Counted from the first letter of the stretch, positions 5,283 to 62,700 are shown. The stretch is DNA of 64,000 nt from an uncultured bacterium (GCA_965541615.1 CBEUCJ010000005.1:110251-174250), one strand, 5' to 3'. Notes: a model not told the origin generated them from the sequence alone. Translations and numbers: made by a program.

Positions 5283-5371
5283 AATTTCTAAATTATAACA
5301 TTTTTCTCCACTTGTATGAAAAAGAATTTGATGGTATGATTATTTAATTTAATAAAAAGGAGGTGTTAAAA

Positions 5372-13688: not shown

Positions 13689-13690
13689 AA

Positions 13691-13719
13691 ATTATCTCAA
13701 AATATTTTTCAATGGTCAA
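13691..13719 (-). promoter_or_regulatory. sigma-70-like promoter (TTGACC-17-GATAAT), duplicated copy of the promoter at 21972-22000
   Basis: rc of 13714-13719 is TTGACC; 17-nt spacer; rc of 13691-13696 is GATAAT. The surrounding ~45 nt are near-identical to 21966-22014. Oriented to transcribe into cheW. Confidence 0.5.
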
Positions 13720-13796
13720 GAATTTTAAATTATTAATGCTCCTTCCAAAAACATTAGTTTAATGTACTTTAACTCAGGAAATTTTTAAAAGCGAAT

Positions 13797-15440: not shown

Positions 15441-15548
15441 TATTCTCATAATCCCCTCCTTTTTAATCTATTTCCCAATATATACAACCAAAAATTTCCT
15501 TTCACAAATTTTGCATACAAATTCAATCTTTCTTATCAATAACAAATT

Positions 15549-17246: not shown

Positions 17247-17514
17247 CCTTCACCTCCCTTTTTCAAGAAAATAATATTAAACTTCTCTCTCTTTCTATTA
17301 TTCCTTTACCTGTCACCTCAACTCCTCGAAAATACTTCCGATAAACTCTATTTAAACTCTTTTCTTCCCAATTTACTAAACATAATTTAAACATATTAAA
17401 TCAATTATACTTTTTTTCCTACAATCATCAAACTATTAAATCAGGTACTATTAACAAAATTTTGAGTCAAAGTTCATTTTTCTTGCTGGCTTATCATCTC
17501 CTTCTTTTTAGAAA

Positions 17515-17544
17515 GATATAACCCTCTTTGCTTAGGCTGTCAAG
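17515..17544 (-). promoter_or_regulatory. candidate sigma-70-type promoter (TTGACA-17-TATATC) in the 426-nt gap upstream of the rhodanese gene
   Basis: rc of 17539-17544 is TTGACA; 17-nt spacer; rc of 17515-17520 is TATATC. Confidence 0.25.
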
Positions 17545-17672
17545 AATTTATACAAAGTTATTTTACAATGCCTGAAATTAGGTCAGAAAGTAAAGGCATC
17601 TGATTTAATACCACCTAATCATTTAGGGAAATACATCTTTTAAAAGCTTTGCCTCTATTGGATTGGAGAGTT

Positions 17673-38700: not shown

Positions 38701-41700
38701 GAAGTTGTATCTTTTTGTGACTACTCCTACAGATTTTGCATTAATTAAATTTTCAGTTTGAGCTTTCTTTATTCCTCTGCCTAAAGCTTGATAGATTCCA
38801 CTTTTAGATAAATGCAATATATTAAAATTTTTCTTAGCTAAATAAAAACTTAACTCTTCTGCACAATCATAATAGAAGCTATTTTTCTTAATATTTTGTG
38901 AACCAATGATTGCAACTGCAGGTTTTAAATTTAAAGAATAGATATTGGCTACATCTGATAATACTTTGTTCATATCTATTTTTTTAGACCTTCTTTTACA
39001 ATTTTTATCGAATAATTCCTTTATTTCAGAAAGAGAATCTTTTACAACAAAGCTTTTTAAATCTTCTTTATCTAAAAAACCTTCTTTGGCACTTTCTTCT
39101 AAAATTTTCTCTAAACCACCATAGAAATCTGTATCTAATAAAACTACAGGTACATCTTTTTCAATAACACCTTCTTTTTTAAGAGCTAATATTTCAAAAA
39201 TTTCATCTAAAGTTCCAAAACCACCTGGTAAACTTACAAACCCACACGATGATAAAACAAAAGCTAATTTTCTGCTGTAAAAATAATGAAAGAGTAAATT
39301 TAAACTCGCATAATTTTCTGTAGACTCAAAAGGAAGTCTCATTTTTAAACCTACAGTCTTTTTTGCCTCTTTTGAGACTGCTTCCATTAATCCTGGACCT
39401 CCACCAGTTACTATAAAATAATCACCACTTAGCAATCTACCTAAGTCTTTGGCTAAGTTATAGTAATAAGTGCCTTCTCTTTCCCTGGCTGAGCCAAAAA
39501 CACCAATACCTTTTTCGATCGATGATAAGACTTTATTGACTTTTTCTATCTCTTCTTTTACTTTTTTAAATCTTTGAAGTATTGAACTTGAAGATTTTGA
39601 ATCATCAATAATTGAAACTTTCTTAATAAGAATAAAAAATATCTCTTGGTCAATAAATTTCTCTATCTCTAAAGAAAACCTAAAAAGCAAATCTTTTATC
39701 TCTTCTTTTTCAGGTAATTTATCTAACGGAAAAGGAAGGAATTTCTTTAGTTTTTTATCTATAAATTCTTTTCCTTCAGGATGAGATATAATTATCTTTC
39801 CATCTTCTTTTAATACTCTAAAGGCTTTTTCTATAATCTTTTCTTTCTCTTTCAAATTAGACCAGACTGCATTAAAGAAAATATAATCTATAGAATTTTC
39901 TTCTAACTCATCTAATAAAGGAGAAACATCTTTATGATAAATCTCTAATTCGAAAATCTCATTAAATTGAGAATTTAATTTTTGATAATTTTCCTTTAGT
40001 TTCTCTATCATCTCTTTTGATAGCTCACAAGCAATTACTTTAGAAGGTCTGTATTTTGCAAAATAAGAAAATAACACTCCTGTACCTGCTCCTACATCTA
40101 AGATTACACTTTCAGGTTTAATTTGAGCTTCTTTTACTATCCTTTCTAATCTTTGCTTTAAATATGAGGGGAATCTATCTAAGCTTAAAATATCTGAAGT
40201 GTAATCAAAAAATCTTGCCTGAAGGTTGTAATACTCTTTGGTATTCTCTTTTAGTGAAGGAGGAGTTTCAACTAATTTAAGGAAAATAAGCAAATCTTTG
40301 ATTTGGGATTGAAATTTTTGAGGTAAGAACGATAACTCTATCTCATTTAAAGTCTTTCTTTTTGGAGGAGCATTGATTTTAATAACTGAAAGAAGTTTTT
40401 CTAAAATGGGCTTAGGTAAAACTTCTTTTAAATTTTCTTCTATTATTTTCAAAGCTAATCTGTACTGATTTTGAACATCTTCATAATGCCCCAGATTCTT
40501 AAACAACTGAGAATAGAAAGAAAGAATAATCTTCTTTATCTTAGAATCTATCTTTGAAGACTCAATTGGAGAAGAAGATCTTTCTAAAAATTCTTTTATT
40601 ACTTTACATTGCTTGAGTATCTCTTGTGGGGAAAATTCATTATTTATTATTACTCTTGCATATTCTTCTTCTCCAGGAAATAAATGGGTTTCAAGAAAAT
40701 AAAGAGCTCTTTTTTCTACTTGGGAAAGTTCTAAATAGTCAAAGTATCTCTCTGATTTTACCCAACGATATATGAAATTATGAATTAAATTCGCAGGTTC
40801 AGTTTTTACATACCACTTATCATCGAACTCATCTAAGAAACATCTGTATCTTAAAGCCTGTTCTCCTTCAATTATATAAATTTTATCTTTAGGAATTATG
40901 TACTCTAAGATGTCACCTGTTAAAGCGTCAATAAGTATTTTACTATCTTTTTCAATGCAAATATCTTTTAACTTAGTATTTTTTAAGTAATCTTCAACTT
41001 TTTTGGCTCTTTCAGGAGCTTTTATTTTTACTTCTTTAATTTTATTTTTCACCTCTTCTCCTACCAGTTCTATTAACCTTTTCTCTCTGATTTCAGAAGG
41101 AGCATCTAAAACCTCATAATCTAACTCCTCTTTAAAAAGTGCTCTTTTTCTTTCTTTTTCTATTTTTCTTAAATCTATTTTTAATCTATCTCTTATAATC
41201 TGTAAGTAAAAAGGAAGAACAAAAGGCTTTCCTTCAATTATATGATAGACACTAATCATAAATCTATCTATTTCAAAAGTATTATAAGGATAAGGTCTTT
41301 TGTCTGTTCTTCTGTCTTCAGGTAAAAGATATCTATCTACCTCAACAACACAAATCTTATCAGCTAAATACTTTAAATCTTTATCCATATATTCTTTTAA
41401 CTTCTTTATTAAATATCCTTTTCCAGAAGCAAATTCTCCTCCCAAAGCAATTATTAACCTTCCTTTTTTGAGTTCATACATTTTCTTTAATCTGTAAGCT
41501 AAAGTTTGAGGTGCTTCTTTTATGTTTAAATAGATGCGTTCTGCTAAATGACGTAAAGCAAACATTCTCCATTCTTTGTAAGATAAACTAAAGATACCAT
41601 TGATTATCGTAGCTGTATTCAAAATTATTGCTAAGTTATCTTCTTTTACAAAGAAAGAAAAGATACCTGCTAAAAGAGCAATTAAAGAACTCATAAATAC

Positions 41701-44700
41701 ACCTGCACCACCTATTGTTACTAATTGATGAAAACTACCTATTTTAGGATAGGTAATCCCTTTTTTTGAAATCTCTATCTTTAACCAATATCCTAACTTT
41801 AATCTGGCAACTAAACTGTGAGCAAATTCATGTAAAAAGATAGAGACCAAATATGTAAAGAACACTAAATTAATAATTTGAACAGGCTCAAATAATCTTC
41901 CAAATCGAATAAAGACCAAAACAAAAGAAATCACCAAAGCTGAGATTAATCTGTGCCAACTTAGAGCTATCTCAGAAGTATGTATTGAAGAAGAGGCTTT
42001 TTTCAGCTCTTTTGGAATATCTTGAAAATAAATTCTGGATATATTTTCTGTTATTCTCTTTACTTTGCTTACATTTTTTCTTTCCATTGCTTTCAGAATC
42101 TCTTTAAATTTTTCAGATAAGACAATTTCAAATTGCAAAGCGCAATATTTTTCTTTTCTAATTCTCCTGTAAATTTTAAAAGCTAAGTTTATGTAAAATA
42201 GAATTGAAAGAAAAGAGATAGCTATAGGAAGATTTTCTTTTTTAACTTCATAACCTATTATTGGAAAGTAATAGTGAGAAAATTTATCTTCAAAAAACTT
42301 GATTTTACCAAAATGTGAAAGGAAGGTTAAAATAATCTTTATCTCTTTTTGGAACTTTATTATTTCTTTTAAATATTTCTCCTTATCTATTTCTTTACTG
42401 AAAATTCCTTCATTGAAGAGCTCTATTCCTATCTCAAAATCTCCTTCAATAATTCCTAACTCCAACATAAAAATTAAGTTAGCAATAATTACATCTATAT
42501 GATGAGAAGTTATTATTAACTTTGGAGAGAGCTTTTCTATAGAGCTAAGTTCTTCTAACAAGAAAGATTTTGAAGAAGGATCTAAAATAATCTCTATGAA
42601 TTGATCAAAGAATATAGAATTTAAACCCCTGATATCATTGATAATCACATTAAATAATCTTTCTAAAAAGAAGGGGATCTCTTCAGAAAAGATCTCTTCA
42701 TTTACAAAATATCTGAATATAAACATATCCAAAAATAATTTTTCTCCTGAAAGAAAACTTTCTTGAAAACTCTTTGAAAAATCATTTAAAATAATTTTTC
42801 TTGTTATATAAGCTAATCTCAAAAGAGATTGAGGATCAAAACTAAATTTATTCTTTTCTAAATTCTTAAATATATCAAAGAGGATCTCAAATGGCGCTTT
42901 TTCAGAAAGTCTCAAAAGTTGTAGAGTTGCTCTTTCTCTTATTTTTCTATCCTGATTTTTTAACTTTTGAAGTAAATCATAGCAAGAAAGAGAGCTCAAT
43001 GAACTACTTGCATTTTTGGACTCTTTTCTTAAAGGAGGCAAAATTTCTTTTCTTATCAAAATATCCATAAATGCACTTAAAGCTAAAGCTGTATCTTTTG
43101 CTTGAGGAATTTCTAATAAAGTTTGAGGCCAATTCCAAAGGATAACAAAAAGATTTGAAGTAGAAAGACCACCTGTAATTGAAGCTAATTCTCTGATGCT
43201 ATTTAAAAGGGTAGCTCTTAAACTCATTATCATTTTTATAAGAGTTCCTATTAACTCAAATTCATCTTCTTTCACAAAGATCTCAACGATTTTATCTTCA
43301 ACTTTATATCTATATTTATTAAATCCTTCAAATTGCCATCTATACTCTAAGAGCTGTGGCAAAAAGAATAAAGGTCTATAACTTATCTGTGTCTCCATTG
43401 CTTTTAATGTAGAAAAAAGCTCAAAGATTTCTTTTGATAACTCTTGAAAAGCAGAAAGAAAATAGAAACTTCTGCCTATCTCTAACAATAATTCTTGAAG
43501 TTTTGAAATCTCCTCCAAACTAACATTCTGAACCCCTCTTAAATAATCTACCAATTTTATAAATTCGATTAATACTATCTCAGTTGAATCTAATAAATCA
43601 GACTGAACTTTTGGTACTTTACTTCTGATAAAATTAAATTTATTAAATACTCTTTGATAATAAGGTAAATCAAAGATAGAAGAACTGGTTTTAGAAATTT
43701 TTTCTTTTGCTTCTTTAGAAATTGTAATTTTATCTTCAATCTTTTCTTTTTTCTTTCCTTTCCTTAGAAACTCTTGGCTTTGAGATCTTTTTTGGAATCC
43801 TATTCTAAAAATAGATAAAATCTTTTGAATAGGCAAAATAGAAGAACTTGAAGAAGATAAAAGAGCTTTAAAGATTTTAAGGTAATCTAATAGATGTCTT
43901 ATACTTGAATAATTCAAAAATACATTATTTTGAGCTTCTTTTGCTCTTCTGTAAGCTTCTTTGGGATTTTTAAAGCATTCTAAAATCTTTCCTGCTGTCT
44001 CTTCAGGAGTATACTTTAATCTTCCTTCTATTTCTTTTCCTTTTACTCCATATCCATACTTATCCTCTCCTACTAAGTGTTTTGGTCCTCCTACATACCC
44101 TGCAATCACTAATTTTCTCTTACTCATACCTTCTACAATAGTTAAACCTAAACCTTCTTTTAAAGATTTCTGTAAGATGATTGTAGCCTCTCTCTGTAAA
44201 GCATTTATTATCAAAGGTGCATAATCTATGTTAATAATATAAATTTCTCCATTCCTCCAGATAGTTCCTTTAGGAATCAATTCTCTTTTCAAAGGTTTTG
44301 TCCTTCTAAGGTTTAAAGAATAGATTAATCCTTTTAGAATCTCTCCTGCTTCTGGATCGTCTTTAGCCATATTTCCTGCATAAACAAGCTGAATATTTAT
44401 ACCTTCATCCTCCAAAGCTTCTTTTGCCATCCTAAAAGCTTCTACTACTCCTTCAGGATCCTTCCAAGGATCAAATCTTGATATCTGTAGTATTAAAGGT
44501 TTATTTACATTTATTCCTAAACTCTCTAAAACATAGAAGATAAAACCTTCAGGTAAAGGTATATTTTTTGGAGATAACAGATTAATGCTTGCAGGAACAA
44601 GATATATAGGAATTTCATTTTCTAATTCTTTCAAAACAAATTCTTCAAAATGGAATATAGCTGCATCATATTCTTTAATAAAAGGTAACAGGTAATCTAC

Positions 44701-47700
44701 AATCTCTTGATTGGGAGAAGATAAGTCTATATGACATCTCCAAATTTTTTTTATATCTTTTTTAACTTTAGATAAAGCTAACAATACAGCTAAAAGAGGT
44801 TGAGGATCATGGCAAACTACAATATCAGCTTTTTCTAATTCATCTTTAATTCTATAAGCTATATATTTACTGTTTTCTTCATAAATCTTTTTCATCTCTT
44901 GTGTAAGCTTAATTTCTCTATTTCCTTGCAACATATTATGGAAAACTTTTGTAACCTCAAAGAATCTTTTATCTTTAGGTTTTATAACTACCCACTTTGT
45001 ATCTAAGCCTAAAGAATTTGATAAAGGTATCATCCATTCTAAAATCTCAGCTACTCCTCCGCCTACTCTTGTAGAATTTATATGCACTATTTTTACTCCT
45101 TTTAACTCCTTGCTGATTTTTCTTATTTCATTTATCTGGTTATTTATTCCTTCTATTACTCCTTTAGAGAGTCTTTCTTTTCTACACAGTTCTAATAAAA
45201 GTTCAACATATTTATTGAAACCTTCTTTTCTCCAGCTTAAATATTTCTTTTCCAATTCTAAAGTTTTATTTATAACTTTTCTGTAATCTGTGGGCTTTTT
45301 TGATTTTTTAAATATATAAAGTAAATTCTTTCTATCTACAATTAAAGGCTTTATTATTCCTAATTCTACAGCTAAATTTTCACATTCTCTTGCCTGTTTT
45401 TTCAACTCTATCAGAGTTTTCTGGATATCTTCTTTTGAAATACCTAATCTTTGTGCAATTCTGTCGATTAACTCTTTTATAAACCAATTCATTTCAATCT
45501 GTGATTCTCCTCCCAAAAATCCCACAGAAGGTATTCCTCTTCCTTTTTCTCTATATAAAGCCCAGCTGAATATGCTTAAAGGTAAAAACTTTCCTTTTTC
45601 TACTTCTAAGATTACATAATAGACATCTAAAAATTCAGATAAAATTTTATTTAATTCCTCAGATTCCTTTAATTTTTTAACGAATTCTTCAAATACTAAT
45701 GCCTTAAAGTATCTGTAAGATGATAACTCATCTTTAGAGAATCTACCTTTTAAAGAATTTTTGAGATAAAAACTAAATTCCTTCTCATTTAGAATTTCTC
45801 TTAAATAATCTGAGAATAATTCTATTTCTGAAAGGAGCACTCCTATGCGAGTAAGATAAAAAATGTAAGGATATTTTAGAGTAACTCCTTTGGGAAAAGG
45901 TGTAACCAAAATCTTTCCACACAGTAATTCTACAAAAGAAAGTTTTTTATCTTCTACTCTTGCCCATTTAATAAAATCTTTAGACTCTTCAACAATAAAA
46001 GCTATTTTTCTTACTTCGAACCACTCACTTTTAAAATTCTTAATCCAGTTTAAGAATTTATCTCGAACTTTTTCATTTATAAAATAATTCAAAATTAAAT
46101 TATCTACAGGTGAAAGTTCTTTAAAAATTTTCAATAAAGATTTATTTTCTTCTAAAAATCTCTTTATTATCTCCTCTTTTAAAAATAAACCTTCTTTAAT
46201 TTCTAAACATCCAGATAAGTTGTTTACTAATTCTTTTACACCTTTTTTAGAATAAATCTCTCCTTTTAATAACCCTTCTAATTTCTTTTCTACTTTACAA
46301 AATTCTTTTTCTAAAGCTCTTGCTTTCTTCTTACCTGAAAGAGCTAAATCTATTCCAAGAGACATTAAGAATCTTTCTCCTTTCTTCTTAACTTTTTCTA
46401 AAAGCTTTTCATATATATCAAAAACATCAACACCTTTTACTTTTTTAGGTATCCTTAAAGGAAATCCTTCTAAATACTCTAACATCACTTCTTCTTTAGA
46501 AGGAGGCAGATACATTAATTCTTTCTTCTTAAACTTCTTTTTAAACTTTTTGACTAATTTTGAAAACTCAATTATTTCTTTTTCTAATGATTCCTGAGCA
46601 TGCATTTTCTTTAAGTTTTCATCTTTTATCTCTTTGAGTTCCTTAAAGAAAGTAGCTAATCTTGCTCTATACAAAGCTACAAAGCAGTTTAGAATATCAC
46701 CTTTGGGAATATTTGAATAAAAGTAAGCTAAAATCAAACTAAATACAATTTTTGCCCAATCTGAAGGATCTAGTTTGAACTTTTCTATTTCTTTTTTGGT
46801 TAAATTCTCTAATTTTCTATAGAAGAAGGGAGGAAAGACTCTTTCATAGAGGTAAGTTTTATACCTTTTAAAATTGTCTATGAAAGACTTTATCTCTTCA
46901 GATACATTTAATTCAACAGGAGGTGCTCTTAAAAGAAGTGGTTCTCCGTAAAAAGGAGGTTTAACAGGTATAAACTCCTTTTTGGTATAGATATATTCAA
47001 AATTTCTCTCAATTTCATTAAAGAGTGTTTTTACAACTTCTCTTAATCTTAAAGGATATTTGTAAGGTGAATGTATTTGGAGTTTGGTCCCTAAATAAGT
47101 TTGGCAAATTTTTAAATTACTTACGATAGCTTTTATACACAAATAAATATCTATTCCATACCTACCAACATCTGTCTTAAAAAATAATTCTTCTTCATCT
47201 TCTAATAAAGCTTTGAAAGCATTTTTATTTATAGCATAAACTCCTCCTATAGGTTCTTCTATCTCATATCCAAAAAGAGTAAGTAAAATAGGTCTTACTA
47301 TGTGATCAGTAATTCTTTTTCCCTCAATAGGTCTATTAAATACAGGAAATACAAAATCATAACCTGCCATTATAGGTTCATATAATTTTCTTATCCACTC
47401 AGGCTGAATTCCCTGGTTTTCTTTTCTTAATAAATCTGCTTCTAAAATAATCAAATCAGAATTTAAATTTTGTGCTTTTTCTATCATCTCTCTAATCGCC
47501 CATCCTTTTCCTTCTTTTCTTCTTTCTAAAACAACAAATTCTCCATCTATCTTTTCTTCTTCAAAAATCTTTTTGATCTTTTCTTCCCATCTTTTACCAA
47601 TAAAAGAACTTATGATCAAAAATTTAGCTACTTTCTCAGGATAAATTTTTAAACCTTCTTTAGCTGTCTTTAAAACTCCTTTTAAAGTCTTCAACTCCTT

Positions 47701-50700
47701 TTCTACTCCTGCAAAAGGAATACCAATTATTATATCTGCTTTATGAGAGAATTTGTTATTCAGACTACTAGAACTTGAAAGGTATGCTTTTAATCTATTT
47801 ATCCTTTCTTTATCTTCAGGATGAGAAAATCTTGGAGTTGGATGGTCTTTGAATAAATCTTCAATCTCATATCTTTCTAACCTCTTTTTTCTTTCTTCTA
47901 ATTGAACCTTTTCTTTAAGAGAATCTAATTTTTCTAAAAAGGTGAGAGCTCTGTAAGGATTAAACTTAGCTTTAATAATGTATCTTAAACCTTCTTTATC
48001 AGCTTCAAATTCTTGATTGCGAAATTCTTTATATAATTTTTCTTCAAGATTATTTATTTCTGAAGAGAACCAGAGTTTGGCAAATTTTCTTACATGGTTC
48101 ATTTCAAGATGAGCAATCTCATGGGCAATTGTTAAAGCGAGTTGATCTTGATTAAGTCCTTTTACAGTCATTTCATCTATTTCAATAAAATCAGGAAAGT
48201 TATTTCCTCCACTGTAAGCGTAAGCAAAAGTAAAAGGATAAGTTTGAGTTACTATGAGAAAATATTTTTTATTTATCTTATTTTCTTTTAAAATTTTATT
48301 GAGAATATTCTTTGCCATTTGGTACTCTGGAGAAGAATAAGAAAATACTTTTTCCCAAAGAGCAATTTTTAGTAAATTATAAAACTTTCTTGTCTCTAAA
48401 TATCTTTCTATATATTCTTTCCTGTGTTCTCTGTGTGTTGAAATTATAACTTGACATAACTTCTTTGATCTCTCACTTAGTTTTGAAATCAATCCTTTTA
48501 TAAAGAAAGTAAATTCTGATCTTCTTAATTGAGAAGAGGGTAAAGAAGGCACATCTCCTTTGTATACTCCTTTAACCATATTTAGCATCAATTCAATATC
48601 TTTTAAAACTGATTTAACAAATTTATCTTTAAATGGATTACCTATAAATCTTTGAGATAAAACTTGAAGAGAAGCTAAATCTTCTTCAACATTTTCTAAA
48701 ATCTCATTGAATCTTTCTTGAATTTTTAGAGTAGAACTTGCTTTAGTATTTATAATCTCTTCTAATTTTTTAAGTGTCTTTTCTGAATCTTTTAATTTAC
48801 TCCATTTATCTATTGCTTTATAAATTATAAGCAACCTTAATTTATATTTTTCTTTTAAATAAGAGATCAACAATTGATTAAGATTTAAAGATAAACTTTT
48901 TTCTTCTATCTCTTTTATCCAACTCTCTATTTTCTTTTTGCCTTCTTTTAACATCAACTCCAAAAGAACATTTTCTTTCCATTCTTCTGAGATATTAAGT
49001 TTTGATTTTAAATTATCTATATTTTCTTTTATTATTTGAGAATGCTCTTTTTTCTGCTCAAACTCTATTTTTAAATTGTCTGCTCTTTCAATTAAATCTC
49101 TGTTTATTATTCCTTTTAATTTTTTAATCTTTGAGAAGAGAAGTTTAATTCTTTCTTCTATTTCTCTCATTTCTTTTAAATCTTTTTCTGTAAGCAATTT
49201 GACGTATTCTTCTAAATCTTCAATTTCTTTCTCAATGCTTGAAACAAAAAGGCTTTTTGTGATCTCTTCTATTATCTCTTTCTTTTTAGGTTTAATCTTT
49301 AATAAAACATTTACTAATTTTTCTTCATCTAATTTTTTAATATGGAACAACTCTTTAAGAACCTTTAAAATCTCTTCAAAAGAATCTTTATAGTAATCTA
49401 AAAAGTAAGTAATTGCATATTCTAAACCTTCTTGTGTAACACCTGCTACTTCTAAAATCTCTCTTTCTGATTCATAAGGTTTTATTTCTTTTTTCTTTAT
49501 TAATAAAGGATAAAAGCTTAATGCCTTCTTTAAATAAGAGATATCTTTTTCTAAAAGATATTTTTCTAAATAATAAACTATACTAATCTTTTCTTCTCTG
49601 GTTTTATTTAATACCTCTTCTGCAATTTTCATAAATTCTTTTGATTTTTCTTTATTTATCTTTTTCCACTCATAATAGAGACCAGTAAGATTTATTTTAG
49701 TTTTTAATAATAAGTAAGGTTTTTCTAACTTTTCTAACTCTTTTATTCCTTTTAAATATAACTCTTCAACTTTTTTATATTTTCTTTCTTTATCCTTTTT
49801 ATCCTTATCAAATTCTGCCAATTCAAAGATAACTACTGCCAAATTCAAATCACACAGTATCTTCTCTTTTGGAGATAAAATTTTTTCTCCCATTTTTTCA
49901 ATTTCATCTTTAGCTTCTTCTAACAGTTCTTTATTCTTTTCTTTAAGAGCCCATTCTGTATAGATCGTTATCAATGCAGATTTAAATTCCTCAATATTTG
50001 GAGTTTTCTCTATCTGTCCTTTTAAGATTTTGATCGCCTCTTTATATTTTGATTCTTCAAAAGCTAATTTTTGAACTTGTGCATATATTTTCATAATCTT
50101 AACTTCTAAAAGACTAATTTTCCTCTCTATTTTTTCCATTTCTTCTATTACCTCTAATGCTCTTGTAAAATCTTTCTTGGTCTCATTTCCTCTCTTTAAA
50201 TACAAAGAAGCTAACAACTCATATAATCCAAGTAAAACTTCTTTTCTTTCTTGAGAGGGTAAAGCTACAGTCTTAGCATAAACTATAGTTCTTTTCACCA
50301 TAGAGATAAGTTTATTTAAATCTTCAGGTGTCTTAATATTTCTTCTTAATTTTTCTATCTGTCTAATTTGAGAACGGAATTTTTTTAGAGTGCTACTTGC
50401 ATTATAAAACTTTGACATTTCTTCTTTGGCAAGTTGTATGAATTCATCTTGATATTTTGTTCTTATGATTAACTGTGCTAATTTTTCTTTTATTTGAGGA
50501 GGAAGATTTATCCACTCATCTAATGATGGAAGATTGTATCCTAACCTTTCTCTTACAAACCAGAATACTATTTCAGAATCGACATATTTAACATCTTCTT
50601 TTTGAATAATGAAATCTATCTCTTTAAATTTTAAACCTGTTTTTTCTTTATAATATTCTGCTGCTTTCTCACCTAATTCTCTGCCTCTATATCTTAACCA

Positions 50701-53700
50701 GAAAATGAAATGATAATGGCTCCATCCCCTTTTATTTAGTCTCTGCTGAATTCCAAAAGGTTTAGAAGGCATATAGTAAACATCTCTAAGATTGGAGATA
50801 GTTTCAAAAGGATCATCAGTAGCATACCCACAATCTAAAAGAAAAATTCTGCCTTGAGAGTCTACACCATATTGGGTTATAAAACTATCATGAACATAGA
50901 TTCCCCTTCTTAAAATAGCTCTATCTAACTCAATTTTCTTCTCAAGAAGTTTTTCTATCTTTTGCCAATCTTTTTCATTGAAAGCTAAAATTAAAGCTTC
51001 ATCTAAAGGAAGAGTTTTAATCTGCACAATAACATTTTCCCATTTCTTCATTTCTCCTTTAATCTTAATATATAAACTCAAATTCATAATAAAATCTGCT
51101 ACTAAACCACTTAATTTTTCTTTTGCCTTTTGATAACCTCTCAAAGTAAATTGCTGAAACTCATCTTTAGGAATCTTTATAACAAAATTTAAATCTTTTC
51201 TTTTCAAAACAATTGTCTGCCCTGAGTAAATCAAATCTTCCTCTGTGAAGTTGTATTTCTGTATTTTTTCTTGTATTTCTACTGAATTCAAAGAAGAGGA
51301 GGCTGATTGAATTCTGGAATCTTTATTTTCATCTTTCTTAAAAACTATTCTTTCATTTTTTCTTGGAAAAAGAATGAAAGAACCGGTCATTGCTAAAGTT
51401 AAAAGCACTTTTTTACCAATAGGAGGACCAATAATAATTAAAAATACAGGAGCTAATCCATTCCATAATCCATGTGCAAGAATAGGACATTTTAGAGATT
51501 TAGTCTTTACATACAAAGAAGCATAGATAATACCTGGAAAGAATTGGTAAACAGGGATACAATAACCTTTTGAAATATGAGACAATGCAAAGACAATTGA
51601 AGAAATAAATATACTCTTTTTTACACCAATATTTAATTTGTTTATAAGCAAACGTCTAAATATCCATTTTCTAAATATTATTTCTTCTATTATAGGCGCG
51701 AGCACTGTATCTTGAAGTAAAATTACTCCTATAACCAAAATAGGATTTTTAATGATCTCAAACAATAAGAGTCCATACAAGAATAGATGAATGTTATAAA
51801 GGGTAATAACAACTGCTAATTCTTTTAGAAAAGAATTTTTATTCAAGTTATCTATAGCACTGCTTGAAGTCAAAGAAAGAGATTTCTTTTCTTTTCGCCA
51901 CCAGTCTTCAGTAATTTGTTGAAAACCAATTTTTTCAAAAAATTCCTCCCTGCCACGTACAACCTTTGCCCATAGAGGAATTTTGCCAATTTTATCGGTT
52001 AATTTTTCAATTAAAAGTTTAGCTATTCCTTTTCTCTGATAAGAAGAATCTACTTCTATTAAAGCAATTATAAATCCTTCTTCTTCAAAACTCTTTTCTT
52101 TAAATAATCCGATTTCTCCTATTTTAAAAATGTCTTTTTTATACCCTAAAAGGAGACCTACTACTTCTTTTTCTATCTTTGCTACAAGAAAAGTAATCTC
52201 TTTATCTTTTGCATTACAAAATTCCATTTCCCATACTAACCTTCTAAAATAACGCTTTTTCTTAAACCATTCTTCAAATACTTTATTTATTTCATTAATA
52301 TCTTTTATCTGGATAATCTCTATATTCATTGATGAGGAAGAAACAAGATCAGCAAACTCTTTATTGAGTCGACTAATAAACCAATCTTTACTTTCTACAG
52401 GATACCCTTTATTTAGAAGTTGTTTAGCTAACTGAAAACATTCTTTACTGATACCTAATGAACTTGAACCAAATTCTGGGCTCTTGTAAGGTTGTCTATA
52501 AGGAGGTGTTGTAGAAGGAATAAATGGTTTAAATTCAATATTGCAAGAAGGATTTAACAATTCTTCAGCAGATGGGAAAAATGGTCTGTTTGATGGTAAA
52601 ATAGCTCCAGATAATACTTGCCATAATACAGAACGTATATCAGGCATTTTGTGTTGAGTGTAAAATAAGGCTTTAAGAGCATTTTCATAGCCAAAGAATA
52701 CTCTATCAAAAAGTTCCTTAAAATAATCTCTCTCTTTTGAAGGTAAAGATCTAAATATTTCTAAAATACTTTTAATAGTTTGCTGTTTGTAAAATTTTAT
52801 CTCACTAAATATCTCAGAATAATACATTTTGATTTTGTCTTCGGCTATTTTCATCATAAAGGGCACCAATACATGGAGAGTTATCTTTTTTGTATCAACA
52901 TATTGAGAAAGGAATATAAAAGGCTTAATTATTTCGTAGAGTTTATCTCCAGAAAAAGCACAGTCATCGATTACCAAAATATCTTGAATTCTTTTCTTTT
53001 TAATTTTTTCAACGAGTTGATTATCAACAAAATATGGCTGTATTTCTCTAATATTTACAATAAAAGCATTTTCAGGAAGTAATTCTTTTTCTACAAGCAA
53101 ATCTCTTATCCAAATATCACTTTTCTTATTTTCAGGAGTGCTTTCTTGAAGAATGAGATAAGATCTATCTCTTATTTCATCTTTAAATCCTTCTCCAGCT
53201 AACTGTAAGTTTAATTCAAATTCAAATTGATCAACATATCTAATATTTTTAACAAGGAACTCAGCTAATTCTTTAGGAAATCTCTTAGGCTGAAGAGATA
53301 TCCATTCTTTAGCTTTTTCTTCATCTATATAAGCATCTTCAAAAGGACGAGGAATGATATTTTCTGGAGATATTTTTCTTTTATTATTAAGATAAGTCAT
53401 AATAATAGCTGATTTACTTTTCTCAGAAAGCTTTTTATTTCTTTCTATTTCTTTAATTGCTTTTAAAATTTCTTGAATTCTTGATAATTCAATGGGAGAA
53501 GCAGCTTCTACTCTATTTCTTCCTTTATTTTTTGCAGTGTACAGAGCTTCATCTGCTTTCTTAATCATTTCTTCTATCTGATCAATAGAGTTAACTTTGC
53601 GTGTAGTTAGTCCTATACTTATTGTGATCTTAATAGAACCTTTTGAAGTCTTAAATTCTTTTTCTTCTACACTCTTTCTTAATCTTTCTGCTACTTTCAA

Positions 53701-56700
53701 AGCAGATTTCTTAGAAGAGAATGGAAGAATTAATATAAACTCTTCTCCTCCCCATCTACATTTCAAGTCTTCTTTTCTGCATATTTTTCTTATAATCTCT
53801 GCTAACTCTCTTAAAATTTGATCTCCTATTTCATGTCCATAAGTATCGTTGATTTCTTTAAAATGATCTATATCTATTACTAATACAGAAATTGATGCCT
53901 CTAAAAGTTCTCTATCTTTTTTCCATTTTTTAATTACTTCTTTAAATCCCCATCTATTTAATAAACCTGTTAATTCATCACTGTAAGCAAATCTTAAAGT
54001 GACTTTAGGAATTTCTAACATTTCTTTTATAAACCTTCCAAGGACAAAGATCTCTTCTAATATTGAAGAATAAAATTCAAATTTTTCTTCACACTCTTTT
54101 ATCTTATGGAAAGGTGTGAGGAGAATTACATCTGCATAAATGCGAGAAGAATGAATAATCCAGAAAAGTAAAGACTTTACCTTTTCTTTGTCTCCATTTG
54201 CATATTCTACAGCGTCTTTTTCCCAATTAGAAAAGTTTACTTGAGTAGAATAATTTTGAACAAGCTTTCCTCTATCTCTAATAAGTAGTAATATTTCCTT
54301 TTCTTTTGATATCCATTCTATTCCAAAGCTCTCTTTTTCTTTATTATTTAATTCTATTATCTTATGCAAAATACCTTTATTAAGGTATTCGTATAATCTG
54401 GAAGCAAAATAATCTTTTTCTATACACTTTGCTTTTTGAGGTTCATCTTCATAAGTAGACTTCCTTAAAGTAGCTATTCTTGCTAGAGTCTTCCATTTTA
54501 AAGTAGGAATATACAATCTGTAATAATAGCCACTTAAACCTAATATTTCTTTAAAAAGAGAAAGTATAAATTCACAATATTTTCTTTCAAACTCTTCTTC
54601 AAAAGCTCCTCTTACTTCTTCTCTAAACTCTTTAAGTTTTTTAGAAAGGAGAAGTATTATTTGTTGAGTTTCTTTATTTAAAGAAGAGCTGGTTGCAAGA
54701 AGGTTGCGTATGCTCTTTTCTAAAAGCAAATTCAAATCAGATGCAGTTTGAAAAGAGGACTCATTTTTAAATTTTTGAGGAGGAGCATTTTGAGTATATC
54801 CTTTAATTAATTGCAAGAATCTATAAAAACTCTTTCTCAAAGAAATTTTTTGGAAAATTGAACTACTTGCTTCTCCTATAATTGAAGAGAGGCGATCACT
54901 TATTAATTTAATGTCAACTTCTCTGGATGAATTAAGAAAAGGAATTAAATTCAAATCTATTTTTTTACTATTTACATTTAAAGAGATGCTTATTCCTTTC
55001 TTATTCATTTCAAATAAAATAGGCTGCCAATTTCTCTTAAAGAATTCTTTTAAGACTGAGGTTTTTCTCTTATTTATAATCTCTTCTGCATATCCTCTAT
55101 TCCTCAATTGAGTAATTTCTTCTGTAATCTTTTCTAAAATTTTTTCTTCCAAAGTTAAAAGGATTTTTTCAAAAACATTAAACTCCCAGATCCCTGCAGA
55201 AATTAAAATAAGCTCAAACTTCTTTAAATCTGATTTTTGAAATGCACTTAAAGTATCTTTTACAGTGTTCTTTAAACAACAGCTAAAGGCTCCTCCTAAA
55301 ATGTATACTTTTTGGATATTATAGAAAAATTCATATTCTCCCCATTGGCTGTTTATTTCTAAGATTTCAATTTCTAACTCTTTTAAAGGTAATGATGAAA
55401 ACATAGAGTTTGTTAAAACTATTAAAGGTGAATTTCTGTGTTCTAAAATAATCTTTCTATAGATTTCTTTATGTGCTTCAATAGGATGGGTCAAAACAAT
55501 AACTTTTTCTGCTAAAAGTTGTTTCTTTACCCTTTCTGCTATTGGACTACTAGAAAGAGTCATCTTTTTTGTATTAACATGGGATGAATTTCCCAGAGAG
55601 CTACTTGAAGAAAGAAATTCAAAGCTTTCAAATGTTCCTATAAATATACTTTTTTCATTTTGATTCCATTCCTCATAATTTTTGTAACAAAGCTCTTTTT
55701 CTTTTTCGTCTCTCATCTTTAAAGCTATCTTTTCTAATTCTTCTAACTTATTTCTTATTCCTCTTTCTTCTATCAGTTTCTTAGCTGTTTCCAAAACCTT
55801 AAAATCACCTGCTAAGTGCATACTCGTAAGGATAATATTTTTAGCTGTTCTTAAATCTTCGTAAGAATCCTTATTAAATTTTGCTATTTCTTGAATACTT
55901 ACTTTCTCAAAGTCTACTTCTGTTCTTTCTTCTTCAGGCAAAATATCTTCAGCAAAGGCTATTGTTTTCTCTATAGATAATAATGCATTTGGAGAGACTT
56001 TTTCTTTATCATAAATTTTTTCTTTATCATAAATCATAATTATATCTATATCTGAACCATACATTCTTTCTCTAGTCAAAGGATTAAATCTAATTTCATT
56101 GTGAGCCATACCTATAGATAAATCTCCTGTTAATAATAAACAAACGCCCTCTAAAGGAAGGAAAGTATAAGAGAGAATATCTTTTGCTAACATTCTCTTT
56201 TTAATATTTACAAATTCTCTTTCTTTTCTTAATTTATCTGTAATTATTCTCATTCTCTCATCATTCTTCAATCCCACTACGGAATAGGTATGAAACTCTC
56301 TAAGAATACTTGGAGAAATTTGAGGAATAATTTTTCCTTCCTCATCTCTTTCTATTCTTAAATATCTTTTTCCTTCAAAAACTATCTCAATCTCTGAGCA
56401 TTTTTTACATATCTGCCATACTCTTACAGCACCAGCTATAGTTTTTACATCTAATTTTTCAAACAATTGCTTTCCTAAAAGAGGTTGTTTAGATAAAATT
56501 TGTTTAATTAACTTTTCTGAAATAGGAGAAGACCTTTTTTCTAAAATGGGACTAGAACTCTTTTTCTTTAAGAGCCAAATTCCTTCTCCATAATATTCAT
56601 TGAGTTTATTTAATAGAGAAGTTAAAGGAGAGATTATAATTAGAAATTCTTTATCTCTGTATCTTCTTGTTTGTCCAATAGTAAAATCAACAGCAATTCC

Positions 56701-59700
56701 TGTTTTTTCTATAAGAAAGAATAAGAAATGATGTTCTTCAAAATAAGTTTGGTCAATATCTCTAAAACTGCCTATTATTATCTGAGGATCAAATTCCTTT
56801 AACTTTTCTGCCAGCCATAATGTAACGATTTCACATTTTCCTTCAACATCACCTTTTGTAAATAGATTTACCTCATTAACTAACTCTAATATTTTCTTTA
56901 AGAGTTTCTGGTGTTCAGCAGAACTCTTTCTGATTGCTTCTTCCAAATCCTTTCTATCAGAAATTATTAAAGAAGAAGAGGAAATTGTGAGTTTGTAGAT
57001 AAAAATCTCATTATTTGAAAATGAGAGAATGTAATCTAATCCTCTTTGTTTTATCAATCTCTCTATTCCAAAATTTTCCAAAGAACCAACTAAAGCAAGA
57101 TAAAAAATTCCATTTACATTAAGATAAAAAGGTAAAATTTCAATTAATTTTCTAAGATGCTGAGTTAACTCTTCTTTAGAGAGTTCTGATACTCCTTGAC
57201 GTGAGATAATTCCAAAATCTGTTTCTAACCCTGGTGCATAATGAATAATCACATCATATTTTTTGTTTTTGATTTGAGGAGTTTTAAAGAAATCTCCCCA
57301 AACAATAATGGCATTCTTTACATCTCTTAATGTGAGTAGAGTATTTAAATAAGCAGAAAGTTTGTAATCTATAGCTGTAATCTGGGTGTAACCTTTGGTA
57401 GCTAAAGCATATCCAATAATTCCAGTCCCTGAACCTAAATCTAAAATTTTGATATCTTTTGTTTTGAATCGTTTTATATCCTTTAAGACGAACTCTATTA
57501 ATTTTCTTGTAGCAAAACTATGAGGAGGAAATACACCTTCTATATAAGGAATAAACAATTGAGTTTTTCCTATTTCTACTTTTTCTAAAGAAATTTTAAT
57601 AGGTGTGTATTTTGAAAAATATAAACTTAAAGGTAAATCAAATTTCTTTGATAATAATTCTCGCCAGTCAATAAAGTAAATTCTTCCTATGCCTAAGTCT
57701 GAATATACAATTATTCCTAAGATTATTTCTTTATCAGCAGCAAAAACACTTACTTTCTTTGTTCTTATTCTGTTAATATCTATTGCGACTATATCTTCAA
57801 GAAACTTTATGTTCTTAGAGAAGAGCTCATATAGAGATTTGCTTTCTTTTTCTAATCTATCTAAAGAAATAGAACTAGAAGAAAATTTAGCAAGAAAGAT
57901 TTGTCTGTATTTTTTAAATTCTTCATATAAATCTTTTTTTGTTCTCTCTTTAATTTCTTCTATATCAATTTTTTCTTTATCAGAAACTACCTCAAGAAAT
58001 TCTTTCATCCAGGGATACTCAAAATATTTCTTTTCTGCTTTCTGAAGGATCATATTATACAATTCTTCAGCCTCTTTAAATCTTTTCTCTCCCAATAAAT
58101 AAATAACTTTCCAGCTTAAAGCTTGCAACTCTTCCTCTTTCATATTACATTCCCTACCAGTTTCAATACATCTATTAATATTTTCCTCTGCCTTAAAATA
58201 ATTACCTTCCAAAAATCTAAAAATACTTGCTTTAAAAAGAAGTCTTAATTCTTTTTTTCTTTCCTTTATTTCTTTATTAATTAAACTGCCTTCTTCCAGC
58301 AGTTTAGCTGCTCTTTTAAAATCTTCCAAAAGAAAATAAATATCTGCCTTCCATTTTTTGCATTTAGCTTTGATTTCTGCCCATTCTTTCTCTCCATAGA
58401 TTTTTCTTTTATAAAGCATTAAACCATCTTTTTCTATCCTCTTTAAGTTCTCAAAAAGAATACTTACTTTTTCTTTTCTTTTTTGGGATAATAAATAATC
58501 AACAAAATTCCAATGAGCAGAGGTTCTTCTTTTTATAGCTTTTTCAAATTCTTCTAACTCCTCTTCCAGTTGGGCGCTCTTAAGAGAGTAATGACCTGCT
58601 TCATAAAATTTTTTATTCCTAAAATATTCTAAAGCTTTTCCATAAAACTCTGAAGCTAAGGATTTCATTACTTTTTTCTTTTCCTCTTTATATTTCTCAA
58701 CTTCTTCTTTTCCAGAAACTTTCGCCTTTCTTATTCCCTTCTCACAAACAGAGATAATCTTTGAAAAGGTAGAAATAATCCCTTCTTTATCTTTCAGTTT
58801 ATGATAAATATGCGTAATCTCAAAAAGTCCTGCAATTGCTCCTTTTATATTTCCTCTCTCTAAATCTAAATTCACAGCTTTCTGGAGATATTCTAAAGCT
58901 TCTCTAAATCTTCCTAATCTCTCATAAACTAAACCTATAAAAGTATAATCTTTAGCTATCCTTTCTTTATTTTCTAATTTTTTATGGATCTCCAATATCT
59001 TAAATTGAAGTTCTAAATATTTCTCCCAATCTTTCTCACGATAAGACATTGCCTTAAAAGTGTAAAGTTTTACTACCATCTCTAACAAATCTTTTCTTTC
59101 CTTTTTACTTTTTAGTCTTTCAACCCACTCTTTACATAATCTATCTACTTTTTCATACTCTTCCTTTTCCATTAAAATCTGAATTTTTCTCTTAATATTC
59201 CTTATATTCTCTTTTTTACTTAAAGGACTGCTGGAATAAGAAAAGCAATTCAGGATTTGATTCTTCCAGAATTCAGGATTCTTTCTATTGAGATTAATTT
59301 GAATTACTGGGCTGGAAGTTGTTTGTAAATATAATTCTTCTAAAAATTTCTTTACTGCTTTTATTGCTTCATCCTCAACGTCTTTAATAAGCCTAAAATT
59401 GGATTTTCTGCCTTCTAATCCTCTAAGCATATCTTTTATATTAGTAGCAAAGTCCATACCTACAGGACCATTTTGTGCAGTAACAGCTACAGCCCTAAAT
59501 TCTTTATCATCCCAAATTAAGTACGGGGAACCTGAATCTCCAGGAATAGAATGAGCTCCTACTAATACAACATTGCCTTCTTTTAAAGGTAACAAAAAGC
59601 CACTAGATACAATCTCATTACAACCACTCACTAAAACAGCTAACTCACTTTCACTAAACTTAAGCTTTATTTTAATTGGTAAAAGCTTTCTATCTTGCAC

Positions 59701-62700
59701 TTCTTCTTTTCTGAGAACGAGTATAGCTAAGTCTCCTCTATCAGGAGATGAGAGATGATGGTGCAAAAGTACTTTAGCTACACCTATCTTTTCTGAAAGG
59801 TGAGTATTAGTTTGAAGTAAAACATTTTTAACACCATAAACTACATGGGTACAGGTTAAAAGTATATACCAATCTCCAACTTCACCAGCTACAAAAGCAC
59901 TACCTCTCTTTTCAATCGTTAAAATACTCCTTGAAAATCCTCCATTTTGCTTTTCTTGTTTAGCCTGCATTTCTAATTTTTTGCATTCATTTTTGCATCG
60001 AGATAGTTTCTCTTCTAAATTAATCCTTACTTGAGTGAACTCAGCAGGATTATTAGTCTGGTATAAGATTTGTTTAAGGATAAAGATTATAGTATCAGGG
60101 TCTACTCCTGCTTTTTCGAGTATTTTGGAAAGACGAATAATCTCTTGAAATGTCTGTATATTTATACATCTCAAAACATTATTTAGCTTTTTAAGATACT
60201 TTTCTAAACTATTAACTATTTTTCTTAAATATGATGCAAACTCAAGCTCAATAATCCTAATAGGAGAACTACTCAGCATCTTACTAAAAGTTTCTAAGTA
60301 TCTTTCAAGATGTTTAGTTACAAGAAATTCTTTTCTTACCCTCTCTTGTGCTTCTTTTCCTATTTTTCTGGCTAACTCATTATCTTTAAAAAGTTGTAAG
60401 ATTTTAAATTTTGCTTCTTCTTTATTTTCTACTAAAAATCCACTTCTTCCATTTTCTATCTGAACTTTTATTCCTCCACAGTTTGTAGCTACAACTGGCT
60501 TTTTCTTCCACATAGCTTCAGTAACTACCAATCCGAACCCTTCTTTTTGTGCTAAATGCACCACCAAATAAGCTGCTCTCTGTAAAGCATTTACCTCTAA
60601 AGCATTTTCTTTTCCTTCACTTTTTAAGCGAAGAAGGTGAATATCTTCTTTAAATTCATATTCTTCTCTTAAAGATTTGAACATCTCAAAAATAAATAAT
60701 CCTTCAGCATCATCACGAGGGAAATTACTTGCCAACACCAGTTGACAATCTATATCCTTTCTAATCTCCTCAAATATTTTCATTGCAACTTCTTGACCTT
60801 TAAAAGGATCAAAACGAGAGACTTGAAGAATTATGGGTTTGTAAGGATTAATTTGATACTTTTCTAATACTCTTCTAATTAATTTTTGAGGAATCTCTTT
60901 ATTTTTGGGACTTAAAGGATTAATACTTGCAGGTATAATTACTATTTTCTCATTAGGCAAATCTTTTTGGACAAATTCTTCTGTATGAAAGACTACTTTA
61001 TCTGCTAAACTGACAAACTCATAGATAAATTTCCACACTTCTTTGTTAGGAGAAGATAAATCTATATGGCATCTCCAGATGATTTTAATATGAGGATACT
61101 TTTCTCTTATCAAAGGAATAATCCCTGCTGTCTGAGGATCATGGCAGATTACAATATCTAAATCTTTAAAAGCTCCTTTTTTCTCCAAGTTTTTAAATTC
61201 CCTCTGAGATATAATCTTATAGAATTCCTTCTCATCTTCACCAAGCTCTACTCTGTTTCCTTGTAGACCATTGTGAAGCTTCTTTTTAGTGAAATTAAAA
61301 AATTCACTGCTTCCTTCAAATACTTCCCAACTTGCTTTTATACCGACTTTGCCAAAAAGAGGAACAAGATTACCTAAAAGTTCAGCTACCCCTCCTCCTT
61401 CTTTGGTAGTATTTATGTGTAAGACTCTTAAACCTTTTAAATTTTTATATTTTTCTTTTAATCTTTGAATCTGCTTTTCTATATACAACCACTCATATAC
61501 ATTTCTTAAAGACACAAATACATCTTTTTTATCCAATTTATCTAATAGTCTTATTATTGAAGATGAAGAAACTTTTTTTGCTAAAGTAGTAGTTTTATTT
61601 ACATTTGAGTAATAATCTTTATCTAATTCAATTTTAAAAATTTCTAAAGCTATCAGATATTTTATTAATTCTTGAGGATACAATTTAAAATATTTGATGC
61701 TTTTAGATTGAGCTTCTTCTTCATTTAATCCTTTAATAAGGTGGGAAATTTCATGGAGAATAACATCATTAATGAGGGTTTGGAAGATTTGAGATTTTTC
61801 TGATTCCGGAGGTGGTGCTCTTGAAGCTAAACTTTCTAAAATCGCTATTTTTTGAGGTACAGTTACTATATCTGCCAATTTACCAGTTTTAGTCTTATCA
61901 ACTAAAATTACTAATTTTTTGGGAGCAATTGCTAGGTTAAACTTTTCAAAACTATTCTTTAAGTAATAATTGTAAAAGATTTTTTTCTGTTTGGAAGCAG
62001 GTTTTTGGTAAGGTTCTTTTAACCTTGCTGGATACTCAAATTGCACATGTTTTAATTCTTTTTCTAAATCCTTTTTCTTTCCAAAGCAAGCTATAACTTC
62101 TTCAGTTAAAAACCAAGCCAAAATCCAGAACTTTATTAATGAAGGTTTTAGTGCTTTTGTTCCTTTAATCTGCAAATCTATAAATTCTTCACTTCCTGCT
62201 TCCTCAGCTGTTCCTGGCAAGAAGAATGCCAAATCTACATCTAATTCTGGGTTTTCTAAAGCAGTTATAACCACAATTTTTGCCTTTGCTTTTTTAGCAG
62301 TCTCTATTAATTTTTTGATTCTCATCTTGCGAGAAGAAACACCAATAATTATTACTAAATCACCTTTTTCTATTCTTGCCTGAACATGTCTTGCACCTGC
62401 AACAGTTGCGATAATTCCTAACTGCTTAAGACGAGTCATAAAAGATAAAGCTACTTGATGGGACACTCCATCACCCAAAATATAAACTTTAGAAAAAGAT
62501 GTAGGCTTAAAAAGAAGTTTAAATCTCTTAAAAATAGGAGGATTTCCAATCTTTTTTAACATCTTGTAGAACTTTTCTATTTTTTCTTTTGTTACTTCCT
62601 TTCTAAATTCTTCACTTCCTGTGATTTGTATGGCTTCTAAATGGGTTAATATATAATTCTTTAATGTTTTAAATACCTCTTCTTCAGTTTTACATTCATT

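Follow-up and report, generated by a model that had tools for sequence, protein, structure and literature searches.

Serine-rich boundary motifs punctuate a giant multi-enzyme reading frame of Omnitrophota and mark candidate cleavage sites

Omnitrophota are known to carry giant open reading frames (ORFs), which range from 20 kb to over 400 kb and include a multi-enzyme class (West-Roberts et al. 2023, bioRxiv 10.1101/2023.11.21.568195; bioRxiv 10.64898/2026.06.07.730766), and giant ORFs of this phylum are also covered by Seymour et al. 2023 (PMC10066038). The encoded proteins reach 147,000 amino acids (aa) (bioRxiv 10.64898/2026.06.07.730766). Cleavage of these giants by embedded peptidases has already been proposed, it is a stated open question whether they work as one chain or as many cut proteins, and the structure-prediction approach of West-Roberts et al. 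was blocked by the lack of known cleavage points (bioRxiv 10.1101/2023.11.21.568195). Here we analyse an ORF of this class that occupies the minus strand of a 64,000-nucleotide stretch of DNA from an uncultured bacterium (GCA_965541615.1, CBEUCJ010000005.1:110251-174250; this whole stretch is called the window below, and positions are counted from its first letter). The ORF had previously been read, from the sequence alone, as a self-processing polyprotein with four to five embedded protease modules, a strategy considered unusual for bacteria. This central idea is not new, because the cleavage hypothesis was published for the class in 2023 (bioRxiv 10.1101/2023.11.21.568195). We describe here the short serine-rich motif that separates the modules of the chain, and weigh whether the chain is cut there.

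The ORF falls into an already known class, the giant multi-enzyme ORFs of Omnitrophota. With the giants described as 'Archaeovorins' (West-Roberts et al. 2023) and with those classed under 'multi-enzyme metabolic cluster' (bioRxiv 10.64898/2026.06.07.730766) it has in common the phylum, a length of more than 10,000 aa, many unrelated enzyme domains, among them glycosyltransferases, methyltransferases, peptidases, GGDEF and kinases, as well as scattered membrane helices and poor sequence conservation. The peptidases named for these giants are C39 and S8, whereas those found here are S1, CPBP and M48, and the glycoside-hydrolase and NUDIX domains that are Archaeovorin traits had no match in the visible 13,379 aa, although the part beyond the window may carry them. 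Traits of the class also comprise an N-terminal signal peptide with a C39 or S8 peptidase, and SecA-like domains; the N-terminus of the present ORF is not in view. Trypsin-like (S1), CPBP or M48 modules, a boundary motif and linkers go unmentioned in both dedicated preprints on Omnitrophota giants; the punctuation, its lineage specificity and the exchange of cassettes at its marks appear to be undescribed in the literature searched.

The nearest functional precedents are MARTX toxins and viral polyproteins, although the ORF is a member of neither group. MARTX toxins are likewise huge chains of unrelated effector enzymes, in which an embedded protease cuts the inter-effector regions and so releases the domains (PMC6315884), and their effector repertoire is reshuffled by recombination (Kwak et al. 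2011, as cited in PMC6315884). They carry RTX-type repeats and a cysteine protease activated by inositol hexakisphosphate, reach a length of ~5,200 aa at most and work in eukaryotic cells, none of which is seen here: Pfam searches of the visible part gave no match to RTX-type glycine-rich repeats or to the C80 cysteine protease, the candidate protease is a serine protease, and the chain has ~38 modules. Viral polyproteins such as those with arterivirus nsp4 or the norovirus 3C-like (3CL) protease resemble the ORF in having a small embedded chymotrypsin-fold protease and short boundary motifs that vary between lineages. The ORF differs from them in lying in a cellular genome with adjoining chemotaxis genes, and the structural likeness of the S1 model to the viral proteases is weak. 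Cyanobactin-type precursors offer a further parallel, with variable cassettes flanked by short, invariant motifs that dedicated proteases recognise; there, the cassettes are peptides of 6-10 residues, as opposed to 300-residue enzymes here, and the proteases are subtilisin-like and separately encoded. Polyvalent proteins are also mosaics, with 2-15 unrelated enzymatic domains per polypeptide, and often carry a metallopeptidase for which a role in setting the other domains free is predicted (Iyer et al. 2017, PMC5512222). They are far smaller, reside on mobile elements (phages and conjugative elements) and have DNA-centred anti-restriction roles, and no conserved boundary motif has been described for them.

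A giant reading frame punctuated by serine runs

A single minus-strand ORF contains all of the proposed protease modules, whose coordinates had been predicted accurately. It ends with a stop codon at 23728-23730, runs without a break up to the last position of the window (64000) and has at least 13,423 codons. Because the frame is unbroken at the window end, the N-terminus lies outside the window, and amino acids are numbered here from a TTG codon at 63867, evidently the convention of the original prediction too. The open frame upstream of this codon (63868-64000, minus strand) encodes residues (KKLYLDTE) that resemble the N-terminal portion lacking from the HUMPS domain with which the visible chain begins, which indicates that the ORF runs past the window. 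The DNA is 28% G+C and extends for 40 kb without a stop, so a chance origin is impossible. Pfam matches occur all along the ORF and represent more than 15 distinct families, none of them dominant. They include HUMPS and SIS, two TreT/GT4 glycosyltransferases, five SAM methyltransferases, GGDEF, PRTase-CE and GNAT, and further two LOG/SLOG domains, an APH kinase-like domain, a nucleotidyltransferase, sigma-70 regions 2 and 4 and TPR. Three bona fide proteases (S1, CPBP and M48) are also among the modules, and about half of the giant chain is without a recognisable domain. We regard the ORF as almost certainly a real coding sequence, a modular giant multi-enzyme ORF of Omnitrophota.

The ~38 self-contained modules of the chain are separated by a short motif of the form (A/T)-S-S-S-(S)-(L/I/P)-hydrophobic, which we call a mark; the median spacing of the marks is 333 aa. 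SSS is the most over-represented tripeptide of the ORF (49 observed, 3.4 expected), and SSSS is found 18 times against an expectation of 0.22. There are 31 runs of three or more serines, in addition to SSP and ASST variants, and none of the 31 falls inside a Pfam envelope, where 6.3 would be expected (P ~9e-4). At 29 of the 31 sites the run is followed by L, I or P, compared with a background of 25%, the preceding position (-1) is enriched for A or T, and the position +2 is enriched for hydrophobic residues. The 19 other proteins of the window have SSS runs about threefold less often and SSS-[L/I/P] about 15-fold less often. The flexible serine linkers reported in the original prediction thus hold up, and can be defined more sharply than they had been.

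Two readings of the marks were rejected. The last three serine codons form 21 different 9-mers at the 31 sites, with TCN and AGY codons mixed as elsewhere in the ORF, and this heterogeneity excludes a DNA-level repeat and shows that selection acts on the amino acids. Nor are the modules hidden separate cistrons, since an ATG follows the marks no more often than expected (4 of 31, with 7.7 expected). Every proposed protease module is bracketed by marks at its predicted edges.

The marks are also the points at which related ORFs differ. Database relatives are few: a 751-aa query around the S1 module retrieved four proteins among 5.8 billion, and a 1,411-aa query from the CPBP to the M48 module retrieved one. 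Single modules are common to these relatives at 61-84% identity, with different neighbours and with breakpoints at marks. The S1 module recurs at 83% identity in P0001, where it is preceded by an adenosine-deaminase module that is missing from this ORF; the similarity begins directly after SSS in P0001 and at aa 1215 here, 13 residues past SSS-P. In the metagenomic relative L002 the first ~750 residues are alike at 77%, after which different modules follow from a mark onward. P0196 has a homologue of aa 12027-12279, then SSS-L, then a homologue of aa 4192-4493, two segments that lie far apart in the present chain. As the breakpoints in P0001, L002 and P0196 coincide with marks, modules behave as cassettes that are swapped between related ORFs at the marks.

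L002 (Ga0164318_10069294), a relative at 77-84%, is 3.3 kb long and was the only relative of the first 600 residues found in a metagenome scan; the same residues had no match among genome contigs. Its positions 1-100 contain several stops before the HUMPS module, so that its ORF seems to begin inside the HUMPS domain, and an in-frame stop at about codon 495, in the SIS-like module, could reflect decay, rearrangement or a sequencing error. The contig L003 (GCA_053996315.1, JBMXYS010000003.1; a 77% relative) begins, at positions 1-132, with the last 43 codons of its upstream ORF. These 43 residues are unrelated to the C-terminus of the present ORF, and the last module therefore differs there too.

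Within the ORF, a recent segmental duplication (33031..38868, minus strand) has copied ~680 aa consisting of a LOG module and the modules that follow it, marks included. The two copies, aa 8334-9015 (36823-38868) and aa 9579-10279 (33031-35133), have an identity of 98% that falls to 47%, and a 26-aa junction containing SSSS is identical in both.

The S1 module and the punctuation of other giants

The S1 module (59317..60264, aa 1202-1517, minus strand) begins with a helical part, which is followed by the chymotrypsin-fold serine protease domain (aa 1311-1500, nt 59368-59937) and by a helix at the C-terminal end. Its N-terminal edge is set by the mark SSS-P (60265..60273, aa 1199-1201). The variant SS-P (59311..59316, aa 1518-1519) follows 73 residues past the catalytic serine, and the next mark, SSS-P, is at 59227-59235. 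The catalytic motifs are present in canonical order (TCTH1341VV, GD1379LAIL, GDS1445GSP), and the single GDSG of the ORF compares with an expectation of 0.06. Pfam matches fall just under the cut-off for Trypsin (E=7.9e-4, 19.7 bits, cut-off 20.6) and under that for Trypsin_2 (E=8e-4, 20.6 bits, cut-off 27.6); judged by its motifs, the module is a divergent member of the S1 family.

We modelled the module with AlphaFold2 from a four-sequence alignment (pLDDT 65, pTM 0.72, second barrel of low confidence; both structure models of this analysis are of moderate confidence). Among the Foldseek matches listed for this model, all are chymotrypsin-fold proteases, with TM scores of 0.3-0.45. The best is nsp4 of equine arteritis virus, and the others include MucD/HtrA/DegQ/DegS, MamO and norovirus 3CL. 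The model is therefore consistent with a double beta-barrel chymotrypsin fold. We considered the arterivirus nsp4 match as a link to viruses and rejected it as too weak at these TM scores and this pLDDT, with HtrA, DegQ and MucD scoring equally. A sequence search of the PDB with the S1 module gave no meaningful match.

A family profile built from the module and its first three relatives retrieved 73 clusters among 1.84 billion representatives. All members with a source name are from Omnitrophota, to which the family appears, as far as the sequences go, to be specific. The catalytic triad is intact in 62 of the 65 domains that are covered end to end. Taken with the motifs and the modelled fold, this marks the S1 module as a real, and probably active, serine protease of a divergent family, as the original prediction of a trypsin-like module had it. 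Of 14 embedded S1 modules, 12 have their first downstream mark, of whatever type, 65-94 residues past the catalytic serine. Inspection by eye of the residues of the S1 pocket revealed no clear pattern that tracks the type of punctuation. One protein, P0005, has two S1 modules in 2,767 aa. Seven relatives (P0006, P0014, P0018, P0020, P0021, P0025 and P0032) are stand-alone proteins of ~500 aa, in which we read a signal- or lipoprotein-like N-terminus, helical repeats (ILxAIAPxxD) and the S1 domain.

Many of the S1-family matches lie in long, stop-free, multi-enzyme fragments labelled Omnitrophota. We searched these fragments by unbiased k-mer enrichment and found that each lineage has its own over-represented boundary motif. 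This is ASSP[VLI] in P0007, P0047 and P0005 (8 observed, 0.06 expected), (T)SKSGGH in P0016 and P0024 (SGGH, 7 against 0.05 expected), and (L)DGG in P0040, which has ten DGG marks in 1,804 aa where 0.22 are expected. P0029 has EGRSLPNP...EPAP (EGRSLPN, 5 against 0.1 expected), P0053 has AKPA, and L001 and P0003 have (K)ASS(S). The SKSGGH and DGG marks look like double-glycine leader sites. The comparison set was picked through the S1 domain itself, and the co-occurrence of S1 and punctuation in it is thus no independent test of a link between the two.

Possible cutting at the marks and its alternatives

In the reading that we favour, the marks would be recognised by a protease that divides the chain into separate proteins while it is being made or afterwards. 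The embedded S1 module (H1341/D1379/S1445) would be the first choice for this enzyme, with a peptidase encoded elsewhere, or located in the N-terminal region that is out of view, nearly as likely. A protease-site function is suggested by the finding that cassettes with nothing else in common are bounded throughout by short motifs that are specific to the lineage, and by analogy such motifs look like the protease sites of viral polyproteins, MARTX inter-effector regions and cassette-type precursors. We put the case for cutting at the marks a little short of even, and the assignment of the cut to the S1 module is the more doubtful part. The wider proposition, which we put forward tentatively, is that the lineage-specific marks are cleavage sites read by co-evolving, dedicated proteases that include the S1 family. 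The giants would then be true cellular polyproteins, operon-like in a single frame, with MARTX-like swapping of cassettes and perhaps prey delivery before release. The part of the self-processing idea that gains from our analysis is the division of the chain into ~38 modules by a boundary motif, without hidden cistrons, together with the conserved S1 triad and the punctuation that varies with lineage. The part that loses is the role given to the CPBP, M48 and M50B-like modules, which look like cargo, and the S1 module itself is dead or mutated in two punctuated relatives.

Several observations weigh against cutting. Most serine proteases accept proline poorly at P1', and it stands directly past the serine run in 7 of the 31 marks; the linkers are also very short. 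The original prediction had looked to the active sites of orthologues, and there the largely intact S1 family has telling exceptions: in P0001, the nearest relative at 83% identity, the catalytic serine is replaced by leucine (GDLGSP), and the S1 domain of P0040 lacks each of the three catalytic residues although the protein is dense in DGG marks. Conversely, about ten S1-bearing proteins of at least 1,000 aa lack enriched punctuation. The N-termini of the stand-alone homologues suggest action outside the cytoplasm, which is at odds with the need of most modules of the giant ORF for cytoplasmic cofactors. The membrane-helix clusters are even-numbered (~6 helices in the CPBP module, ~4 in the M50B-like module), so that an uncut chain could keep all soluble, cofactor-dependent modules on one side, the cytoplasmic one. 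Finally, the number of protease modules is in itself weak evidence for self-processing.

These points bear most directly on the possibility that the chain is an uncut mega-enzyme, tied to the membrane through its CPBP and M50B-like helices, in which the marks are short hinges and the proteases act on other substrates. We consider this the main rival, a serious contender that is nonetheless less likely than not. It agrees with the placement of the soluble modules on one side that the two helix clusters would allow, with the dead or mutated S1 domains of two punctuated relatives, and with a 2026 preprint that takes most giants as membrane-anchored (bioRxiv 10.64898/2026.06.07.730766). A generic hinge, however, leaves unexplained why 94% of the serine runs are followed by L, I or P, and equally the complex motifs SKSGGH and EGRSLPNP of other lineages. 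The marks of an uncut chain might alternatively be phosphorylation or O-glycosylation sites for the embedded kinase-like or GT4 modules, but no one modification chemistry suits all of the motif types. A sigma-70-like module within a chain of ~1.5 MDa would also be hard to square with binding to RNA polymerase. If the chain is instead cut at the marks, the work could be done by a peptidase other than those in view, either a C39 or S8 enzyme at the unseen N-terminus or one that is separately encoded, with the visible proteases as cargo. This is a sub-case of cutting at the marks rather than an exclusive alternative to it, and we think it unlikely. The double-glycine look of the SKSGGH and DGG marks speaks for it, as do the punctuation of P0040 despite its dead S1 domain and the position of the N-terminus beyond the window, although SSS-L/I/P is no double-glycine site. 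C39 and S8 domains lie near the N-termini of giants (West-Roberts et al., bioRxiv 10.1101/2023.11.21.568195), but neither domain is found in the visible 13,400 residues.

Two further explanations deny the marks or the ORF any such function, and both fare worse. The marks might be without function in the protein and be by-products of module joining, either recombination scars or the outcome of concerted linker evolution, as the coincidence of exchange breakpoints with marks and the carrying along of marks in the recent internal duplication would allow. Yet the heterogeneous serine codons offer no nucleotide homology that could drive recombination, the motif is kept as amino acids, and the +1 and +2 preferences are likewise at the protein level; we consider this explanation very unlikely. 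That the ORF is an artefact or a pseudogene, a misassembled or untranslated stretch that resembles one frame, is barely credible. Giant ORFs often break assemblies and L002 has its one in-frame stop, but 13,400 stop-free codons at 28% GC, good Pfam scores along the whole length and a 3' end that is intact in independent assemblies all stand against it.

Cutting at the marks, the reading that we prefer, has the merit of precision. A boundary motif that is under protein-level selection, varies between lineages and marks the breakpoints of module exchange gives exact predicted cut sites, which can be looked for in metaproteomes already available and put to the test on small recombinant fragments. 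If correct, no cellular organism would have a polyprotein strategy that comes near this one in size, and it would be a natural means of stoichiometric co-expression of dozens of enzymes. If cutting is refuted, the marks still show where modules begin and end, as a basis for annotation and modelling of the dark half of the giants.

Further protease modules, other modules and genomic setting

The CPBP module (51301..51858, aa 4004-4189, minus strand) is an Rce1-like intramembrane glutamic protease with ~6 predicted membrane helices (all transmembrane counts are from a Kyte-Doolittle scan). It matches the Pfam Rce1-like model PF02517 at 3.9e-19, with 69.2 bits against a cut-off of 22.4, and is below the cut-offs of the NCBIfam myxosortase-type models. 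Its three motifs lie in membrane helices: E4061-E4062...R4066 (EExxxR), F4093...H4097 (FxxxH) and H4132...N4136 (HxxxN). The module is preceded by the mark SSS-A (51859..51867, aa 4001-4003) and followed by SSS-L (51292..51300, aa 4190-4192); the latter mark also precedes the homologous module in P0196.

The M48 zinc metalloprotease module (47779..48729, aa 5047-5363, minus strand) scores 49.6 bits in Pfam against a cut-off of 20.3 and has the motifs HEIAH (5249-5253) and EFEAD (5286-5290). It lies between the variant mark A-SST-L (48730..48738, aa 5044-5046) and SSSSS-L (47764..47778, aa 5364-5368). A hydropathy scan of aa 5044-5368 found no hydrophobic segment that could serve as a membrane anchor of the HtpX/Ste24-like kind, and the module resembles soluble M48 members. 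Both this assignment and that of the CPBP module had been made correctly in the original prediction. When the stretch from the CPBP to the M48 module was used in a homology search, neither protease gave an orthologue, and the one match was to a neighbouring module of unknown kind.

The proposed M50/S2P-like membrane protease fared less well. This candidate M50B-like metalloprotease (41548..41985, aa 7295-7440, minus strand; preceded by the mark A-SSS-I at 41986..41994, aa 7292-7294) has a cluster of four helices, and its HEFAH motif (7346-7350) lies inside predicted helix 7331-7349. Its matches to Peptidase_M50B (E=7.8e-4, 19.6 bits, cut-off 26) and to M50 (10.5 bits, cut-off 27.2) are below the cut-offs, and no second metal-ligand motif (xxLDG, typical of a later helix) is visible in the sequence. 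The M50B-like identity is plausible without being established. The candidate papain/transglutaminase-like module (56560..56970, aa 2300-2436, minus strand) has C2345, H2379/H2380 and D2394 as putative catalytic residues. It is preceded by the mark SSSS-L (56971..56982, aa 2296-2299), and the next mark lies at 56551-56559.

The CPBP, M48 and M50B-like modules each occur in one copy and have no detectable orthologues in the relatives; none was available for the papain-like candidate either. Because they are single-copy, are not found in relatives and are enzymes of a membrane-protein type, they are more probably cargo enzymes than processing machinery.

HExxH occurs three times in the ORF, where 0.19 are expected. 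The third instance (VILHEISHL, aa 705-709, ~61741-61755) is in an un-annotated module beyond the range covered by the original prediction and may represent a further zincin-like module. A re-scan of all un-annotated segments for further peptidases found nothing, and the HExxH at aa 705 is without a Pfam match.

Two other parts of the chain deserve mention. At its visible start (aa 13-334, in the 62865-63867 region), HUMPS (hexulose-phosphate synthase-like) adjoins SIS (phosphohexulose isomerase-like) with one mark between them; the two correspond to successive steps of the ribulose-monophosphate pathway, a hint of some local pathway logic in the order of the modules. The sigma-70-like module, with regions 2 and 4 (25984-26523, aa 12449-12628), is flanked by two marks, and a weak match to sigma-70 region 2 is present in aa 8498-9379. 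A sigma factor tethered in the chain would be odd unless it is released.

The host is assigned to Omnitrophota by its genes. For the adjacent CheA, every named match among those listed is from Candidatus Omnitrophota/Omnitrophica, and the label Omnitrophota is also carried by the S1 relatives L001, P0005, P0007, P0016, P0040 and P0014 and by the module relative P0196; no ribosomal marker lies within the window. The neighbouring genes are a chemotaxis cluster, a radical-SAM enzyme, an STT3-type oligosaccharyltransferase and a GT2 glycosyltransferase, and such ordinary neighbours indicate a cellular chromosome. The same neighbour genes are present at 97% nucleotide identity on ENA, JGI and Logan contigs, and the independent ENA and JGI assemblies have the last 2.4 kb of the giant ORF, at its 3' end, intact. 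A segment of ~4.2 kb (13455-17671), with the genes of a Cache/HAMP chemoreceptor and of a four-rhodanese protein, is missing from the three otherwise 97%-identical contigs L004-L006, and is a strain-level insertion or deletion.

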